Of a DNA stretch of 64,000 nucleotides, positions 934 through 63,662 are shown in pieces. Position 1 is the first letter of the stretch. Each line of letters starts with the position of its first letter. The translations under genes were made by a program, and so were the position numbers. The notes below the pieces were generated by a model, which ran no database searches, was not told the DNA's origin, and saw nothing but the letters and a program-made list of their open reading frames with translations. Source of the stretch: an uncultured Pseudomonadota bacterium (GTDB taxonomy: Bacteria > Pseudomonadota > Alphaproteobacteria > RF32 > CAG-239); the NCBI GenBank assembly GCA_902761535.1, contig CACWKS010000002.1, forward strand, positions 142,418 through 206,417, in the 5' to 3' direction.

Positions 934-3054
934 TTAAGCCTGATAATTTTGCACACTCTCATCTTTATCAAATAAATAGAGCAGGGTACGCAGAGCCTGT
1001 CCGCGTTTGCTTTGCAATAATTTATCTTTATTGATAATCAGTTGAGTATCTTTATGTGCCACCAATAACAAATGACGATGATAATCCATATTCGCCAAAT
1101 GAAAATCTTCCAACCCGCTTTGGCGTGTTCCCAATATCTCACCGCCGCCGCGTAACTCCAAATCTTTTTCGGCAATCACAAATCCGTCTTCGGTTTGTTT
1201 CATTATATTCAATCTTTCGTAAGCCGTCTCACTCAAATGTCCGCCATACATCAACAAACAAATCGCTTGTTGATTACCTCTTTTCACTCTTCCGCGCAAT
1301 TGGTGCAATTGTGCCAAACCGAAACGTTCGGCATGCTCGATTAGCATAAGAGTTGCCTGCGGTACATTAACACCCACTTCAATCACCGTCGTTGCCACCA
1401 ACAAACGAAGCTCGCCATTTTTGAAACGATTCATAACTTCATTTTTTTCCGCTTCTTTCATTTTGCCGTGAACTAAACCTATCTTATCGCCGAATATCTG
1501 CTGTAAATCGGCAAATCGTGCCTCTGCCGCGGCCAGATCGGATTTTTCGCTTTCTTCAACCAGCGGACAAACCCAGTATGCCATAATTCCGTCATTAATT
1601 TGTTTTTCCAGTCCGCGTATAACTTCAGATAGTTTAGTCAAAGGTATAACTCTGGTATCAACCGGTTTGCGTCCTTCCGGCAGTTTATCGATAACCGAAC
1701 AATCCATATCTCCGTAAGCACTCAAAACCAAAGTTCTGGGAATTGGCGTTGCCGTCATTACCAACACATCAACGTTAATTCCTTTTTGTGATAACTTCAG
1801 CCGTTGTTGCACCCCGAAACGATGTTGTTCGTCAACAATCGCCAAATTCAAATTGTGATAAATCACCTCATTTTGAAATAAAGCATGAGTGCCGATAATA
1901 ATATCAATCTTACCATCAGCCAAATCATTCAAAATTTGCTTGCGTTCTTTGGCTTTGGTTTTTCCGGTCAGTAAAGCAGTCTTTACTCCGATAGTCTCAG
2001 TCATCGGTGCAATAGTTTCATAATGTTGCTGTGCCAAAATTTCGGTCGGTGCCATCAATGCCGCTTGTCCTTTAACCTCTACGGTATTTAACATTGCCAA
2101 CAGAGCTACAATGGTTTTACCTGAACCCACATCGCCTTGTAACAAGCGCATCATTTTATATTCCGAAGCTTGATCTGTATAAATTTCCTGCAAAACTTTT
2201 TCTTGTGCTTCGGTCAATTTAAATGGCAGTTGTTCAACAATCTTTTGGCGCAGGCGACCATCTCCGGAGATCGATTTTCCTTTTATCTTTTTTCGCTCTT
2301 CACGCACAATTCCCAAAGTCAACTGATTAGCCAACAGTTCATCATAGGCCAGTCTGGCACGTTCTTTGGCAAAAGGTTGCAAATCATTTATGGTATTCGG
2401 ATGATGTGCTTTTAATAATGCGTTCTTAAAATTCGGCCATCCTTTTTCTTTTATAAATTGCTCATCAAGCCACTCCGGTAATTCAGGCACTTTTTTCAAA
2501 GCCTGTACCATAAATTTTTCCAGCATTTTATTGGTGATACCGGCAGTCAAAGGATACACCGGTTCGATTTCCGGTATTTCTGCGGCATCACTTTCGTTCA
2601 GTATAAAATCAGGATGCGCCATTTGCAGCTGGTTGTTAAATCTTTCCAATTTGCCGCTAATGATTTTGCTTGCACCGACCGGCAGGTTCTTGAGAATAGA
2701 ATCAGCATACACCTTAAAAAATATCAAAGTCAGTTGTTCGGTATCGTCTTCCACAATCACTCGATAAGGTTGTTGCCGTTTCTTTGGCGGGATATGTTCC
2801 ACAACTTTAACTTTGACAGTACAAATTTTTCCGGCAACGGCATTTTGCAACTTGGGCCGATAACTGCGGTCGATAATATTAGTCGGCAAATGAAATAACA
2901 AATCGATAATTCGTCTTCCGCCCAACAGATTTTCCATATATTTAAGTGTCTTCGGTCCCATACCTTTCAGCGAAGACAAATCAGCAAACAACGGATATAA
3001 AACTTCCGGACGCATCAAACAACCTTTCATTTTTTTTACAAAATAAACTTGCAA
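934..3054 (-). CDS. recG: ATP-dependent DNA helicase RecG
   Basis: 706-aa ORF with helicase motifs GDVGSGKT and DEQHRFGV and a C-terminal RecG-type region. The true start may be the internal Met at about 3015. Confidence 0.9.
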   Translation of the reverse strand: MQVYFVKKMKGCLMRPEVLYPLFADLSSLKGMGPKTLKYMENLLGGRRIIDLLFHLPTNIIDRSYRPKLQNAVAGKICTVKVKVVEHIPPKKRQQPYRVIVEDDTEQLTLIFFKVYADSILKNLPVGASKIISGKLERFNNQLQMAHPDFILNESDAAEIPEIEPVYPLTAGITNKMLEKFMVQALKKVPELPEWLDEQFIKEKGWPNFKNALLKAHHPNTINDLQPFAKERARLAYDELLANQLTLGIVREERKKIKGKSISGDGRLRQKIVEQLPFKLTEAQEKVLQEIYTDQASEYKMMRLLQGDVGSGKTIVALLAMLNTVEVKGQAALMAPTEILAQQHYETIAPMTETIGVKTALLTGKTKAKERKQILNDLADGKIDIIIGTHALFQNEVIYHNLNLAIVDEQHRFGVQQRLKLSQKGINVDVLVMTATPIPRTLVLSAYGDMDCSVIDKLPEGRKPVDTRVIPLTKLSEVIRGLEKQINDGIMAYWVCPLVEESEKSDLAAAEARFADLQQIFGDKIGLVHGKMKEAEKNEVMNRFKNGELRLLVATTVIEVGVNVPQATLMLIEHAERFGLAQLHQLRGRVKRGNQQAICLLMYGGHLSETAYERLNIMKQTEDGFVIAEKDLELRGGGEILGTRQSGLEDFHLANMDYHRHLLLVAHKDTQLIINKDKLLQSKRGQALRTLLYLFDKDESVQNYQA

Positions 3055-58099: not shown

Positions 58100-58258
58100 A
58101 GTCAGCCTCTTGCCTTTTTTTGAAACATTTTTCTCATTATAAAAACAAAAGTTAAATAAATTATTTATCTTTTGTCGACGAATTTTCTTGCAAATTTTGT
58201 CTTTTTGATTATAGAATGACCGCAACAAACTTTATTATTAACCTTAATATTATTAATC

Positions 58259-58945
58259 ATGAAAAAATTTGTTTTTTGCGCTCTGTGCGCACTTGCCATT
58301 TTGGCAATTGTTGGCTGTAAAGGCCGTAATTACAAAAGCCAAGTTATGCTTGGCAATGAACCGACAAACTATTACCATTGGACATGGACGGCTCAAGACG
58401 CCCCCTGGGGTATCTGCGATAAGGACGGCAACACCATCATCCCGCGGGTTTACCCCAAGTCGGTAGCCTATTACGGCGATTACTTCATCGCCGACAGCTT
58501 AACTAAGCAGGTACTTTACTCAGTGGATGGAAAACGTCTCTATGAGGCCGATAAAATCGAGCGGAGCGGTTTCAAGTACTTTGTCATTGGAGTCAACAAT
58601 GGTAAACAGTCCGTGTTTGATTTACGTACCGGAAAGACGGTCGACGGTTTCGACCAGATGCAGGTTTTCGCTTGCGGAGGTGAGGTGTTTTACCTTGTAA
58701 CCGTGGCCGAGAAAAAAGGTGTTACCGATACTCAAGGTAACATTGTTATCGGCCCGCGTTACGACGAGGTCATCGCCATCACCGACATCATCAAAGGCAA
58801 GAAGAGCGGTTTCTTCCTCTGTTGCAATAGCGGCTTATGGGAGAAACGTGACCTTGCCGGCAAGCAGACCGGTAAGCCCACCGCCAAACAAGTTGCGGCG
58901 GAAAAGAAAAAGACGGCCAACAGCCGAACGGTGCAGGAGTTTTGA
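58259..58945 (+). CDS. WG-repeat lipoprotein, GC-rich, probably horizontally acquired
   Basis: Lipobox AIVGCKG and repeated aromatic/WG-like segments. A sampled 60-nt stretch is about 58% GC, against roughly 30-35% for neighbouring genes. Confidence 0.6.
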   Translation: MKKFVFCALCALAILAIVGCKGRNYKSQVMLGNEPTNYYHWTWTAQDAPWGICDKDGNTIIPRVYPKSVAYYGDYFIADSLTKQVLYSVDGKRLYEADKIERSGFKYFVIGVNNGKQSVFDLRTGKTVDGFDQMQVFACGGEVFYLVTVAEKKGVTDTQGNIVIGPRYDEVIAITDIIKGKKSGFFLCCNSGLWEKRDLAGKQTGKPTAKQVAAEKKKTANSRTVQEF

Positions 58946-60844: not shown

Positions 60845-60919
60845 GGCCGGTTGGCAGAGTGGCTCATGCAGAGGACTGCAAATCCTTGTACATCGGTTCA
60901 ATTCCGGTACCGGCCTCCA
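60845..60919 (+). tRNA. tRNA-Cys (anticodon GCA), CCA encoded
   Basis: Cloverleaf read by eye. Acceptor ggccggt/accggcc. Anticodon loop ct-GCA-aa. T-arm ggttcaattcc. Coordinates are +/-1. Confidence 0.8.
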
Positions 60920-60933
60920 GATTTTTACCGTAT

Positions 60934-61008
60934 TCCGGCTTAGCTCAGCGGTAGAGCAATCGGCTGTTAACCGATTGGTCGCCTGTTCGAATCAGGCAGC
61001 CGGAGCCA
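60934..61008 (+). tRNA. tRNA-Asn (anticodon GTT), CCA encoded
   Basis: Acceptor tccggct/agccgga. D-arm agctcagcggtagagc. Anticodon loop ct-GTT-aa. T-arm cctgttcgaatcagg. Confidence 0.8.
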
Positions 61009-61041
61009 ATAAAAAAATACTCACCCTTGTGGTGAGTATTT
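61009..61041 (+). terminator. Rho-independent terminator after tRNA-Asn
   Basis: tactcacc-cttg-tggtgagta hairpin followed by a T7 run. Confidence 0.7.
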
Positions 61042-61074
61042 TTTTATGTCCCGTCTATCTGATGCGGATAGGCG

Positions 61075-61195
61075 AGCAAAGGGAGCCTGTTTGACCGGAG
61101 GTCGGCTTTTGTATAAGTAAAAGCCGGACGAACGGCGGCTTTAGCCCATCAGGCAGCCGTCCTTATTTTACTCACCCTTGTGGTATTTTTTATGC
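61075..61195 (+). repeat. Degenerate second copy of the tRNA-Asn T-arm / 3' end / terminator, with a ~60-bp hairpin element inserted at the T-loop
   Basis: gcctgtt + [tgaccggaggtcggcttttgtataagtaaaagccggacgaacggcggctttagccc] + atcaggcagccg-tcc + ttattttactcacccttgtggtattttt. The element core is a hairpin (gtcggcttttg...aaaagccggac). Confidence 0.6.
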
Positions 61196-61558
61196 TATTT
61201 ACTTGCTTGTTTTATTGTAAAAACACAATTAACACACAGAATAAAGCTAGTCAATTTGATATTTTAATATTATTGTAATAATACAATATATGCATTCAAT
61301 TATTACCGCCAATATTGAGAATATCTTAAATCCCTTGAATAATACCTTAAATCAAGGTATGCAGTATGCTCAAAATACTTTAATCAATGTAAAAAACGAT
61401 GCCGTACAATTACCTTAGCGAAGGAGCCGGTGCTGTAAATAATTATCTTAATAATCTTGTAAAAAATCAAAATGGACGATACTATATCAATTACGATGGA
61501 ATATCCGATAATAGATTATCGGATATGTTTAAACGGATTGAAACAAGGTTGCGTAATT

Positions 61559-62191
61559 TTGAAAAATAAACTTTTTTTAATATTGTTTACAGTCTTTTCT
61601 TGCGGTAAAGTTTACGCTTTGCCGCAAGATTGGCCATGTAAGGATTTTGTGCTTAATGAGTACCAAAGAATAGAAAATGGTGAGTTTACCATAAATAGCA
61701 TATACCGCGGGCAAGATAATGACTATGCTTTGGAAGTAAATATGTATTGGCAAGCGGAAAAGGGAATTGCCGATTGTGGAACATCCGGTTGTTTAGGAAC
61801 GATTAAAAATACCAAAACCGGAAAAGTGGAAAGTTTAAGGTTCTTTTGCGAAATTTTAGAAGATAAAAAATATGACAAAGCTAAGTGTTATATCGGCGGT
61901 ATTTATGAATATATTTTTAATTCGGATGAAAAAGGAAATTATATTGTTCATTATTGTCCGGATGATATGCAAAAAACTTTGCGCTTTAATAAAAGCAATT
62001 GCGATAAATGCCATTGTACAATGTATAAGTATGATAGAAAGATAAAGGATAAAAACAGTCATTATGAAATGGCTTGTAAAAAAGAGGAAAACAAAGCACA
62101 TTGTTTTAATTATTACGAATATGAAGTTTGGCGTAATTTTGAAAATGCTGATAATGACTATCAAAATTGTGTAGGACTAGATTTTTATTAG
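61559..62191 (+). CDS. Secreted cysteine-rich hypothetical protein
   Basis: The ORF track starts at 61472; the likely start is a TTG at about 61559, giving signal peptide LKNKLFLILFTVFSCGKVYA. The mature part has 14 Cys, including CDKCHC. Confidence 0.5.
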   Translation: MKNKLFLILFTVFSCGKVYALPQDWPCKDFVLNEYQRIENGEFTINSIYRGQDNDYALEVNMYWQAEKGIADCGTSGCLGTIKNTKTGKVESLRFFCEILEDKKYDKAKCYIGGIYEYIFNSDEKGNYIVHYCPDDMQKTLRFNKSNCDKCHCTMYKYDRKIKDKNSHYEMACKKEENKAHCFNYYEYEVWRNFENADNDYQNCVGLDFY

Positions 62192-62262
62192 CTGAATATT
62201 CTAAGAGTGCTCAACATAAAGCAGCCCCGCAAATTGTAAACAAAAACGGTATAGACAGTTAA

Positions 62263-62395
62263 ACAATTGGTCGCCTGTTTGACTGGAGGTCGGCTTTTGC
62301 GGCTGTAAAAGCCGGACGAACGGCGGCTTTATCCCGTCCGGTAGCCGGAGCCAATAAAAAAATACTCACCCTTGTGGTGAGTATTTTTTTAGTCG
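62263..62395 (+). repeat. Third copy of the tRNA-Asn 3' half (intact acceptor end and terminator), interrupted at the same T-loop position by the same hairpin element
   Basis: ttggtcgcctgtt + [tgactggaggtcggcttttgcggctgtaaaagccggacgaacggcggctttatcccgtccggt] + agccggagccaataaaaaaatactcacccttgtggtgagtattttttt. The segment after the insertion is identical to the 3' end of the real tRNA-Asn plus its terminator. Confidence 0.65.
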
Positions 62396-62877
62396 TCGTA
62401 AGACGGAATGTGTTTTACCAGAAATTCCGGAGACCATACGCCGGTATACCAACCTTTTTTGTAATAAAAGGTAATCACCTTTAGATGACCTTCGTCGTCG
62501 TGGATTTTCTTATCCAACGATTTAAGGCTGAAATACACAGCCATATACCCAACAGCCGCGACAACACACATCGCAAGCAAGATCATGCAAGGAATCATGT
62601 TATCTTGCACCATCTGCAAAAAGGCGTAGATCAAACCCAAAACAACAAGAAACATCAAAATTATGGCACTTTCCCATGCCTTATGCATGCGGTCTTGGTG
62701 CTTGACATAGGCTTTTGCCGTCTCCTCATCTTCGGCAAAGATAACAAAAACCATTCGGCTGAAAAAACCGAATCTCGCCGTTATTACACCATTAAGTCCT
62801 GCCTCATCGGGGCTCACATTAAACTGACGAGAAAAGATACGTATTGCCTTCTCTCTTAATTCTTCATTATTTTTCAT
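62389..62877 (-). CDS. Hypothetical membrane protein (two central transmembrane helices)
   Basis: 162-aa ORF with two hydrophobic helices at residues 85-130. Its stop lies next to the bidirectional terminator in the repeat above. Confidence 0.45.
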   Translation of the reverse strand: MKNNEELREKAIRIFSRQFNVSPDEAGLNGVITARFGFFSRMVFVIFAEDEETAKAYVKHQDRMHKAWESAIILMFLVVLGLIYAFLQMVQDNMIPCMILLAMCVVAAVGYMAVYFSLKSLDKKIHDDEGHLKVITFYYKKGWYTGVWSPEFLVKHIPSYDD

Positions 62878-63029
62878 AGATAATAAATTTAATTGTTTAA
62901 CATAATAATTTTAATTGTGCGGCAAACTAACATAGAAATTAAATTTTTGCAAGTTTTTTATTGCTTTTAAATTTTACGCTTTTATACTTATTACTGTTGG
63001 AATAGCCCAAATTCTGACAGGGATGTGAC

Positions 63030-63197
63030 AGTCCTAATCGACGTGGGCAATAAAACTTTCGGTTTATTGAAAGTCTTTTGTTAATGGGCATCTGCCTATA
63101 CGGTGGATGTCAGCGATATAAGGCTTGCTCGAATAAGCTGGACTATTCATCATGTCGATTATAGTGTCAACATCCACCGCCCTCGTGCGGTGTTTTT
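63030..63197 (+). promoter_or_regulatory. Structured 5' leader / candidate riboregulator (attenuator-like, with mutually exclusive stems) upstream of the YoqJ-like gene
   Basis: 8-bp long-range pairing taatcgac (63034-41) with gtcgatta (63155-62). 10-bp pairing cggtggatgt (63101-10) with acatccaccg (63169-78). That second stem shares ccaccg with a terminator hairpin accgc-cctcgt-gcggt followed by tgttttt (63174-63196). An RBS gaaaggaagg follows. GC is locally elevated. Confidence 0.4.
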
Positions 63198-63662
63198 GTG
63201 TGGGCAGAAAGGAAGGTTGATTTGAGCAAAATTTGTGCCTTTTTCGGACACCGCGATACTCCTTATTCTGTTGAGCTTGAAAACCGACTTGAACAAACCG
63301 TTCGTCAACTTATTGCCGAAGGATATGATGAGTTTTGGTGTTGTGAACAGGGAACTTTTGACTGGATGGCGCGTAGTATTATGCTCAAATTAAAAAAAGA
63401 ATTTAATTATATAACAATATGTTATATTTGTGCTTACCGTTGTTCTGCAAGCAAGTTTAAATGGTTGGAAGAGCATTTTGATATAATATATCCTGACGAA
63501 GTCGCCCAATGCCCGCCTAAATCAGCCATTCTACGCCGTAATTGATATATTGCCGAAAATGTTGATGCTGTTATATGCTATATCACTCACAATTCCGGCG
63601 GTGCCTATCAAGCTATGCAATTTGCCACCCGAAAAGGCAAAATTATAATCAACCTGTACTAA
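63198..63662 (+). pseudogene. YoqJ/DUF1273 (SLOG-superfamily) gene interrupted by an in-frame TGA at 63543
   Basis: N-terminal part ...KICAFFGHRDTP...EGYDEFWCCEQGTFDWMARS... ends at TGA. The same frame then continues as YIAENVDAVICYITHNSGGAYQAMQFATRKGKIIINLY* to about 63662, which matches the conserved YoqJ C-terminus. The likely start is a TTG at about 63222 or a GTG at 63198. Confidence 0.55.

Follow-up and report, generated by a model that had tools for sequence, protein, structure and literature searches.

The subject of this work is the leader of a gene for a YpsA/DprA-like SLOG protein on the forward strand of a 64,000-nt stretch of DNA, referred to throughout as the window, from an uncultured bacterium of the alphaproteobacterial lineage RF32; CAG-239 (assembly GCA_902761535.1, contig CACWKS010000002.1, positions 142,418 to 206,417). 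The gene occupies 63222-63662 (+), with a weak Pfam match to YpsA and an in-frame TGA at 63543-63545, and is preceded at 62961-62988 (+) by a putative sigma-70 promoter in which a 16-nt spacer separates the -35 box TTGCTT (62961-62966) from the -10 box TATACT (62983-62988). These TTGC..TATAC boxes are kept at equal distance in orthologous loci (alignment A4) and would place the start of transcription at about 62994-62996. The predicted RNA would have its 5′ end near 62994, and the whole leader, 62994-63221 (~230 nt), would form the 5′ part of the downstream mRNA. A preliminary description of this DNA had seen a structured, GC-enriched leader here but had begun it at 63030; the structured leader stands, with its start moved to near 62994, and the hairpin P0 together with further alternative pairings now belongs to it. 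The strong ribosome-binding site (RBS) and start codon described downstream are present as AGGAAGG (63210-63216) and, 5 nt further 3′, TTG (63222-63224). We report that this leader is one of a family of related RNAs in which two incompatible folds are both supported by covariation.

At the 5′ end, the hairpin P0 (62994-63003 / 63011-63020; this and all further features of the leader are on the + strand) closes the 7-nt loop L0 (AGCCCAA, 63004-63010), whose GCCC is complementary to the UGGGC motifs G1, G2 and G4. The next segment, 63021-63034, comprises X1, the 5′ strand of P1 and X2, and can form either the hairpin Pa (63021-63023 / 63032-63034) or the P1 5′ strand (63021-63030). The 5′ strand of helix P2 (63035-63046) overlaps G1 (63044-63048) and is followed by the hairpin P3 (63055-63060 / 63069-63074), which varies in sequence and length among loci, and then by G2 (63085-63089) and the anti-antiterminator strand S1 (63087-63096). 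S1 pairs as P4 with S2 (cGGUGGAUGUC, 63101-63111), a shared strand, almost invariant among relatives, whose other partner is S3, giving the antiterminator. The hairpin P5 (63110-63114 / 63137-63141), with a ~22-nt loop containing the conserved AAUAAGG...CGAAUAA, leads into the 5′ arm of P6 (63142-63146), the 3′ strand of P2 (63150-63161) and the 3′ arm of P6 (63161-63165), P6 and P2 being in competition within the window sequence. The 3′ strand of P1 (63165-63175, with A63170 bulged) overlaps S3 (63170-63179), the hub for three competing pairings: P1, S2:S3 and an intrinsic terminator (63175-63197; stem 63175-63180 / 63187-63192, loop CCUCGU, U5 at 63193-63197). Between the terminator and the RBS lies G4 (63201-63205).

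The elements named in the preliminary description were all recovered, with small corrections of coordinates. Its 8-bp long-range helix exists, but is the outer portion of the 12-bp helix P2 (63035-63046 / 63150-63161) and had been placed one nucleotide off, C63034 and U63162 being unpaired. Its 10-bp helix is perfect and corresponds to S2:S3 (63101-63110 / 63170-63179), with the 3′ arm at 63170-63179 rather than 63169-63178. A repeat search returned both as inverted repeats (I1, identical to S2:S3, and I2, 63035-63052 / 63144-63161, which covers P2). The terminator hairpin CACCGC-CCTCGT-GCGGTG (63175-63192), followed by TTTTTGT, has 63175-63179 in common with the 3′ arm of the 10-bp helix, as had been said. 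The unusual degree of structure and the GC enrichment were borne out as well: RNA folding of 63000-63200 gave a minimum free energy (MFE) of -68.3 kcal/mol on the + strand (z = -4.42; 0/200 shuffles as good) and of -54.2 kcal/mol (z = -3.2) on the - strand, and the GC content of the leader is 0.44 against ~0.37 in the flanking kilobases.

The family to which this leader belongs is known from ~35 copies in metagenome-assembled genomes (MAGs) of Alphaproteobacteria and in gut or rumen metagenomes, and the downstream open reading frame (ORF) has ~40 homologues, those encoded at loci in GTDB genomes all coming from uncultured Alphaproteobacteria MAGs. All seven MAG loci with upstream sequence (7/7) carry an alignable ~230-nt leader behind a TTGC..TATAC promoter. 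A DNA pattern independent of the gene (S2...P5/P6...S3) returned 22 metagenome loci, 21 of them genuine, and look-ups of homologous proteins gave the further copies L037, L038 and L046. A covariance model built from the relatives (R1; 190 positions, 46 pairs) scores 112-188 bits on 28 full-length copies, every one of which lies 25-60 nt 5′ of a co-oriented ORF. On the window, R1 scores 164.8 bits on the + strand against 8.2 bits on the - strand, which is on par with the other copies, and the leader is intact. The R1 scan found no second copy in the 64-kb window; a weak partial match at 58232-58359 (+; 14.4 bits, rough E = 0.02, model positions 44-165) overlaps the start of an ORF at 58259-58945 and is probably due to chance.

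This leader is a member of a previously uncatalogued RNA family. With Rfam 15 at gathering thresholds, the whole window yielded two tRNAs only, and the Rfam scan that had been suggested for the leader gave no + strand match at E<=10 in 62850-63300 (451 nt). A narK match on the - strand at 63187-63239 was the only one in that segment; at 18.8 bits (E = 0.29), where the gathering score is 43.2, we take it for a chance match. In seven orthologous loci (L003-L009), the leaders gave no Rfam match at E<=1. Public collections were each scanned once, with a strict pattern, and similar DNA was not found in viral contigs, PLSDB plasmids or INPHARED phages. Literature searches on DUF1273/YpsA combined with riboswitch or RNA motif returned no description. 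The human-microbiome screen of Fremin & Bhatt 2021 (PMC8040213) does not mention the element, and no sequence match was found in the 200 of its 408 supplementary files that were searched.

The preliminary description had called for a search for covariation in orthologous leaders, and this revealed a conserved structure with compensatory changes. Two alignments were used: A9, a model-based alignment of 27 distinct sequences that was fitted to the first of the folds considered here, and A5, made with MAFFT. In this first fold, state A, P0 is followed by a nearly continuous rod without a large central bubble, made of P1 (63021-63030 / 63165-63175), P2, P3, P4 (S1:S2, 63087-63096 / 63102-63111) and P5, with the terminator alongside. 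On A9, state A is 93.5% paired with 34 of its 46 pairs double-changed; 0/500 shuffles were as good and slid controls gave 35-45%, while A5 gave 92.0% paired and 19 double-changed pairs. The signal is spread over the helices: compensatory changes occur in all eight modelled pairs of P0 (94.4% of cells paired), and double changes in 4/5 pairs of the P1 core (100% paired), 10/11 pairs of P2 (98.6% paired), all six pairs of P3 (83% of cells paired) and 4/5 pairs of P5, with P4 97.2% paired. G-U pairing is conserved on the sense strand, one P2 pair being GU in 25/27 sequences.

When RNAalifold was applied to A5, it did not return the rod. It returned a three-way junction of S2:S3, P5 and P6, together with a pairing between L0 (GCCC) and G1 (GGGC). 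The second fold, state B, consists of P0, Pa (63021-63023 / 63032-63034), L0:G1, S2:S3, P5 and P6 (63142-63146 / 63161-63165), with no unpaired residues between S2, P5 and P6 at the junction. On A9, which was not fitted to it, state B is 96.7% paired with 22/34 pairs double-changed (0/500 shuffles as good, slid controls 30-44%). S2:S3 forms a continuous 8-10-bp helix (99.5% paired, three pairs double-changed), all four pairs of Pa are double-changed, L0:G1 is 100% paired with two double-changed pairs, and P6 is 99% paired with one pair found in three compensatory forms.

The key evidence comes from positions at which one strand has to satisfy two partners. S2 has S1 and S3 as alternative partners, and the helices S1:S2, S2:S3 and S3:terminator use common nucleotides; X1 with the Pa loop pairs with X2 or with the P1 3′ strand; G1 pairs with the P2 3′ strand or with L0. 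Where S2 varies (GGUGGA to GGUGGG or GGCGGA), both of its partners vary with it: GGUGGAUG has become GGUGGGU in L004, L009 and L026, and GGCGGAUG in L037, and each time S1 and S3 both follow. X1 is GGAU or GGAC, matched by X2 (AUCC or GUC[C/U]) and by X3 inside S3 (AUCC or GUCC). In L021, where a G-to-A change has made G1 AGGC, L0 (GCCU) and the P2 3′ partner (U) both compensate. The strands S2, X1 and G1 each have two co-evolving 'mimic' partners, and two incompatible folds are supported by covariation. Because the covariation is three-way, both folds appear to be under selection. The preliminary description had proposed mutually exclusive antiterminator and terminator stems in the layout of a riboswitch-type attenuator, and the compensatory changes found for both pairings in relatives speak for that proposal. 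Several positions that are at least 90% conserved are unpaired in both folds (the P5 loop AAUAAGG...CGAAUAA, A63049, G63086-63087 and A63170) and, to judge from the alignment, are candidate ligand or tertiary contacts.

The way in which the leader ends differs among lineages, and variation of this kind is typical of genuine riboswitches. Among 24 distinct leaders surveyed, 14 have a hairpin with a U-run, two a hairpin with a poor U-run, two an RBS hairpin and six neither. Where relatives have a terminator, its 5′ arm always begins within the S3 CACC, and between lineages the stems show covariation (CACCGC/GCGGUG, CACCCACCU/AGGUGGGUG and ACCCGCC/GGCGGGU). In L006 and L007, a CCUUUAAU/AUUAAAGG hairpin lies over the RBS. 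In most leaders G4 (UUGGGCUGA) directly precedes the RBS, and up to 9 bp can be formed between it and L0; by this complementarity, contacts of L0 with G4 and with G2 can be put forward as a hypothesis.

In most copies (~30/35), the gene that follows is a YpsA-like SLOG gene, and divergent subfamilies with TFFGH or CAFLGNDYDF motifs are among these. The assignment of these proteins to the YpsA family is tentative: scores against PF06908 (YpsA/DUF1273) are 20-26 bits, under the 27.7-bit cut-off, while the AlphaFold model of a homologue (pLDDT 96) has its best match in B. subtilis YpsA (2nx2, E = 1e-7, TM 0.71), followed by DprA and ShosA. The leader also precedes endonuclease I genes in L027 and L046 (PF04231, E = 7e-33) and an SNase gene (PF00565) in L031, and in L014 an endonuclease I homologue comes after the SLOG gene, so the regulon, as read from these neighbours, looks like one of DNA processing and degradation. 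The chromosomal neighbours vary, with HU in the window, bamE in L037 and secE-nusG in L038, which makes the leader plus its gene a self-contained unit. Full-length homologues encode Arg where the window gene has its in-frame TGA (63543-63545); the codon is CGA in a related MAG (L002) and TGA, as here, in an independent assembly (L001). A nonsense mutation from CGA to TGA seems to have occurred, and the SLOG gene is probably a pseudogene in the window lineage; recoding of TGA is disfavoured because there are long ORFs elsewhere in the window. An exact-protein look-up found no record of the truncated SLOG product.

On the conservation of the element, the covariation in both folds, the overlap of the competing strands, the range of platforms and the gene association, we consider it probable that 62994-63221 is a cis-regulatory RNA switch, a riboswitch-like attenuator of uncultured gut and rumen Alphaproteobacteria, which would control a regulon of SLOG, endonuclease I and SNase genes. 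It has features general to riboswitches, namely a covarying 5′ untranslated region (UTR) domain, exclusive structures coupled to a terminator or RBS, and platforms that differ by lineage. In the scheme that we infer for its operation, P0, Pa and P4 would arise as local hairpins after transcription begins at ~62995, and as the P2 3′ strand and then S3 emerge, the rod would zip up (P2, then P1) and displace Pa. In the resulting state A, P1 and P2 would close a junction of P3, P4 and P5, with S1 holding S2 and P1 holding most of S3; the free CACC tail of S3 would nucleate the terminator and the gene would be OFF, and L0 may pair with G4 beside the RBS. In state B, S2:S3 would take up the terminator 5′ arm, P5 and P6 would stack on S2:S3, X1 would close Pa and L0 would pair with G1, leaving no terminator and an open G4/RBS region, with the gene ON. 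An effector would bias the choice of fold during transcription: were it to stabilise the 5′ domain (P0, L0:G1 and Pa) or the S2:S3/P5/P6 junction, P2 and P1 would be blocked and S3 would capture S2. The reverse polarity, in which a ligand stabilises state A, would fit the sequence data equally. The effector might be a small molecule or the SLOG protein itself, and our first guess would be a small metabolite tied to DNA or nucleotide turnover.

Several points weigh against reading the leader as a switch. The reading is built from sequence comparison and computed folding; the sequences come from few clades, with fewer independent events than the cell counts suggest, and A9 was fitted to state A. 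Considering nested-pair energies, state A with the terminator is the MFE structure in 29/29 leaders tested, and forcing S2:S3 costs 5-26 kcal/mol (10.4 in the window), a figure that leaves outside it the pseudoknot energy of L0:G1 or L0:G2. State A is thus the default, and kinetic trapping, pseudoknot energy or an effector would be required for state B, whose helices could instead be conserved folding intermediates. Covariation of L0:G4 and L0:G2 is no better than in shuffles, and in the window G4 is a degenerate version (UGUGGGCAGA) of the consensus. The downstream gene is broken in the window lineage, and the association beyond SLOG comes from four loci.

A more specific form of the switch reading is possible, and we put it forward only tentatively: the RNA may be a riboswitch of a new class, or a feedback switch of RNA and protein acting through the DprA/YpsA-like SLOG protein, that senses a signal derived from DNA or nucleotides and gates a regulon for the scavenging or uptake of DNA (secreted endonuclease I, SNase and an ssDNA-binding-like SLOG protein, ssDNA being single-stranded DNA). 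An RNA that toggles as a whole, over 230 nt, between two global folds would be an unusual design, and this too belongs to that tentative proposal. Like OFF riboswitches that terminate transcription and contain an anti-antiterminator, for example SAM-I/S-box, the leader has a conserved multi-helix 5′ domain, platforms that vary by species and one strand, here S2, shared by an aptamer helix (P4) and an antiterminator that overlaps the terminator 5′ arm; unlike them, it has no Rfam match, three competing sets of strands rather than one, and a 5′ hairpin loop with several decoy partners. Representatives of the 2′-dG-II riboswitch are associated with endonuclease I genes, where a product of DNA breakdown would control a DNase, and endonuclease I is likewise among the genes that the present leader precedes. 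Purine-type aptamers, however, are ~70-nt three-way junctions with conserved junction residues, whereas this leader is ~230 nt long, has no Rfam purine match and forms in state B a junction without unpaired residues between S2, P5 and P6.

Were the leader indeed a switch, it would represent an orphan class of regulatory RNA from gut and rumen Alphaproteobacteria, a lineage without a cultured model, and would connect sensing by RNA with extracellular DNases and with a YpsA/DprA-like protein of obscure function. The identity of the effector would open a route to the function of the YpsA/YoqJ family. Through its multi-strand mimicry, in which three-way covariation occurs at three sites, the leader would also be a remarkably clear natural case of a globally bistable RNA, useful for studies of co-transcriptional folding and for benchmarking the detection of alternative structures.

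Other explanations for the leader have to be weighed against a riboswitch-like attenuator. One is that the attenuator depends on protein and is autoregulated, with the SLOG protein, perhaps nucleotide-loaded, binding the leader and tipping the two-state switch in the manner of PyrR; the UGGGC repeats or the P5 loop would be candidate binding sites and the nuclease genes further members of the regulon. PyrR-type attenuators use three tiers of anti-antiterminator, antiterminator and terminator, and the same three-tier competition is seen here, with a possible regulator encoded directly downstream of the leader. That ~30/35 copies precede the SLOG gene itself is in keeping with this, as are the predicted fold of the protein, whose nearest matches are YpsA and the nucleic-acid-binding domain of DprA, and the recurrence of four UGGGC-type motifs in the leader. 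These motifs co-vary with L0, however, which argues for base pairing rather than read-out by a protein; the leader lacks the PyrR binding-loop motif and the regulon is one of DNA processing and nucleases rather than pyrimidine synthesis. We know of no RNA-binding activity in YpsA-family proteins, and the window has an intact leader but a truncated protein. We therefore regard autoregulation by the SLOG protein as unlikely.

Another is that the RNA is a constitutive structured 5′ UTR that adopts state A only and serves mRNA stability or processing, the other helices being intermediates or by-products of the similarity between S1 and S3 and between X2 and X3. The greater computed stability of state A would be expected on this view, and transcription would produce the local hairpins Pa, P4 and P6 first. 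The long-range helix S2:S3 is nevertheless off any path to state A, is kept by compensatory changes and overlaps the terminator 5′ arm in every terminator-bearing lineage, and a constitutive terminator would simply silence the sole downstream gene, which leaves a one-state leader very improbable.

The preliminary description had also raised a free-standing small RNA (sRNA), and a trans-acting RNA of ~200 nt (62994-63197) whose position before the ORF is incidental would agree with the strong terminator 25 nt 5′ of the ORF in the window, and with state A plus terminator being the MFE structure everywhere, from which a terminated transcript should accumulate. This now seems very improbable: the full-length copies all keep their place close before a co-oriented ORF, ~10/24 distinct leaders have no functional terminator, conservation runs past the hairpin through G4 to the RBS, and the window holds one copy with no second locus. 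A comparison with 6S RNA, suggested by the rod-like ~190-nt fold ending at a terminator, fails in a similar way, there being no RF00013 or 6S-like match and no large central bubble in an RNA that is always an ORF leader, often without a terminator.

Frpo/ssi ssDNA promoters lie in the leading regions of plasmids, and YoqJ/YpsA-like genes ride on mobile elements. An element acting as DNA, either such a promoter or an inverted-repeat recombination site, would account for the long imperfect inverted repeat, the distant SLOG homologues in relaxase- or integrase-bearing elements and the duplicate and partial copies in L003 and L038, but is barely credible given the conserved sense-strand G-U pairs, which on the template strand would turn into C-A mismatches, the strong strand asymmetry of the model scores (on which the ssDNA promoter was rejected), the conserved double-stranded promoter upstream, the lack of matches in viral contigs, plasmids and phages, and the housekeeping genes that are its chromosomal neighbours.

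Two further classes of RNA were considered and rejected. The preliminary description had likened the leader to a T-box, with which it shares its length, a terminator and an antiterminator, and S2 (GGGUGGAUGCC) superficially resembles the T-box sequence AGGGUGGNACCGCG. The likeness goes no further: S2:S3 is continuous and lacks the 7-nt UGGN bulge, neither a Stem I specifier nor a K-turn is present, no RF00230 match was obtained, the genes are SLOG and nuclease genes rather than aminoacyl-tRNA synthetase or amino-acid genes, and the host is an alphaproteobacterium. The ToxI-like RNA of a type III toxin-antitoxin system requires tandem direct repeats, and the repeat search found no tandem or direct repeats in 62900-63300.

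Copies of the leader show some further peculiarities. In L003 (2355-3070), the promoter, the leader and the first ~50 nt of the SLOG gene are present as a tandem duplicate, and the differences between the duplicate and its twin are almost all compensatory and lie in P1 and P2. Copies of the 3′ half of the leader lie downstream of the SLOG gene in L038 (5469-5574) and in L039, and in L040 (2629-3019) Ns stand between two leader halves of different 'alleles'. The compensatory P1/P2 variants among copies suggest recombination of leader alleles or a collapse of repeats in assembly. Public gene calls for several homologues (P0001, P0002, P0014 and P0023) carry N-terminal extensions of 24-66 aa that are translated leader RNA, such as MSIIVSTSTALVRCF...; these extensions are artefacts of start-site annotation, arising because the RNA went unrecognised.

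Distant SLOG homologues (34-42% identity) in relaxase- or integrase-bearing elements were found without the leader RNA. In L032, L033 and L036 (~2500-3000), a distant YpsA-like homologue is preceded by a divergently oriented XRE/HTH_19 gene and a ~190-bp spacer without the leader RNA; control by a protein repressor seems to stand here in place of control by the RNA. The leader RNA was likewise not found at two endonuclease I homologues, L041 (75% identity) and L042 (50%). An XRE-family HTH gene is conserved after the nuclease genes that do have the leader (L027, ~2330-2670; L031, ~630-970; L046, 2122-2472). DUF3768 accompanies the XRE gene in L046 and L041, with an integrase as well in L041, and the nuclease-bearing copies may lie within a mobile island.

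Upstream of the leader in the window, within 60845-62877, genes for tRNA-Cys and tRNA-Asn (60845-61008) are followed by a stretch of lower GC (33-37%). It contains a Cys-rich ORF of 239 aa (61472-62191) and a putative membrane protein of 162 aa (62389-62877, - strand), and no Pfam or NCBIfam match to either exceeds the curated cut-off. This low-GC stretch may be an island integrated beside the tRNAs, with the leader-SLOG unit at its edge.

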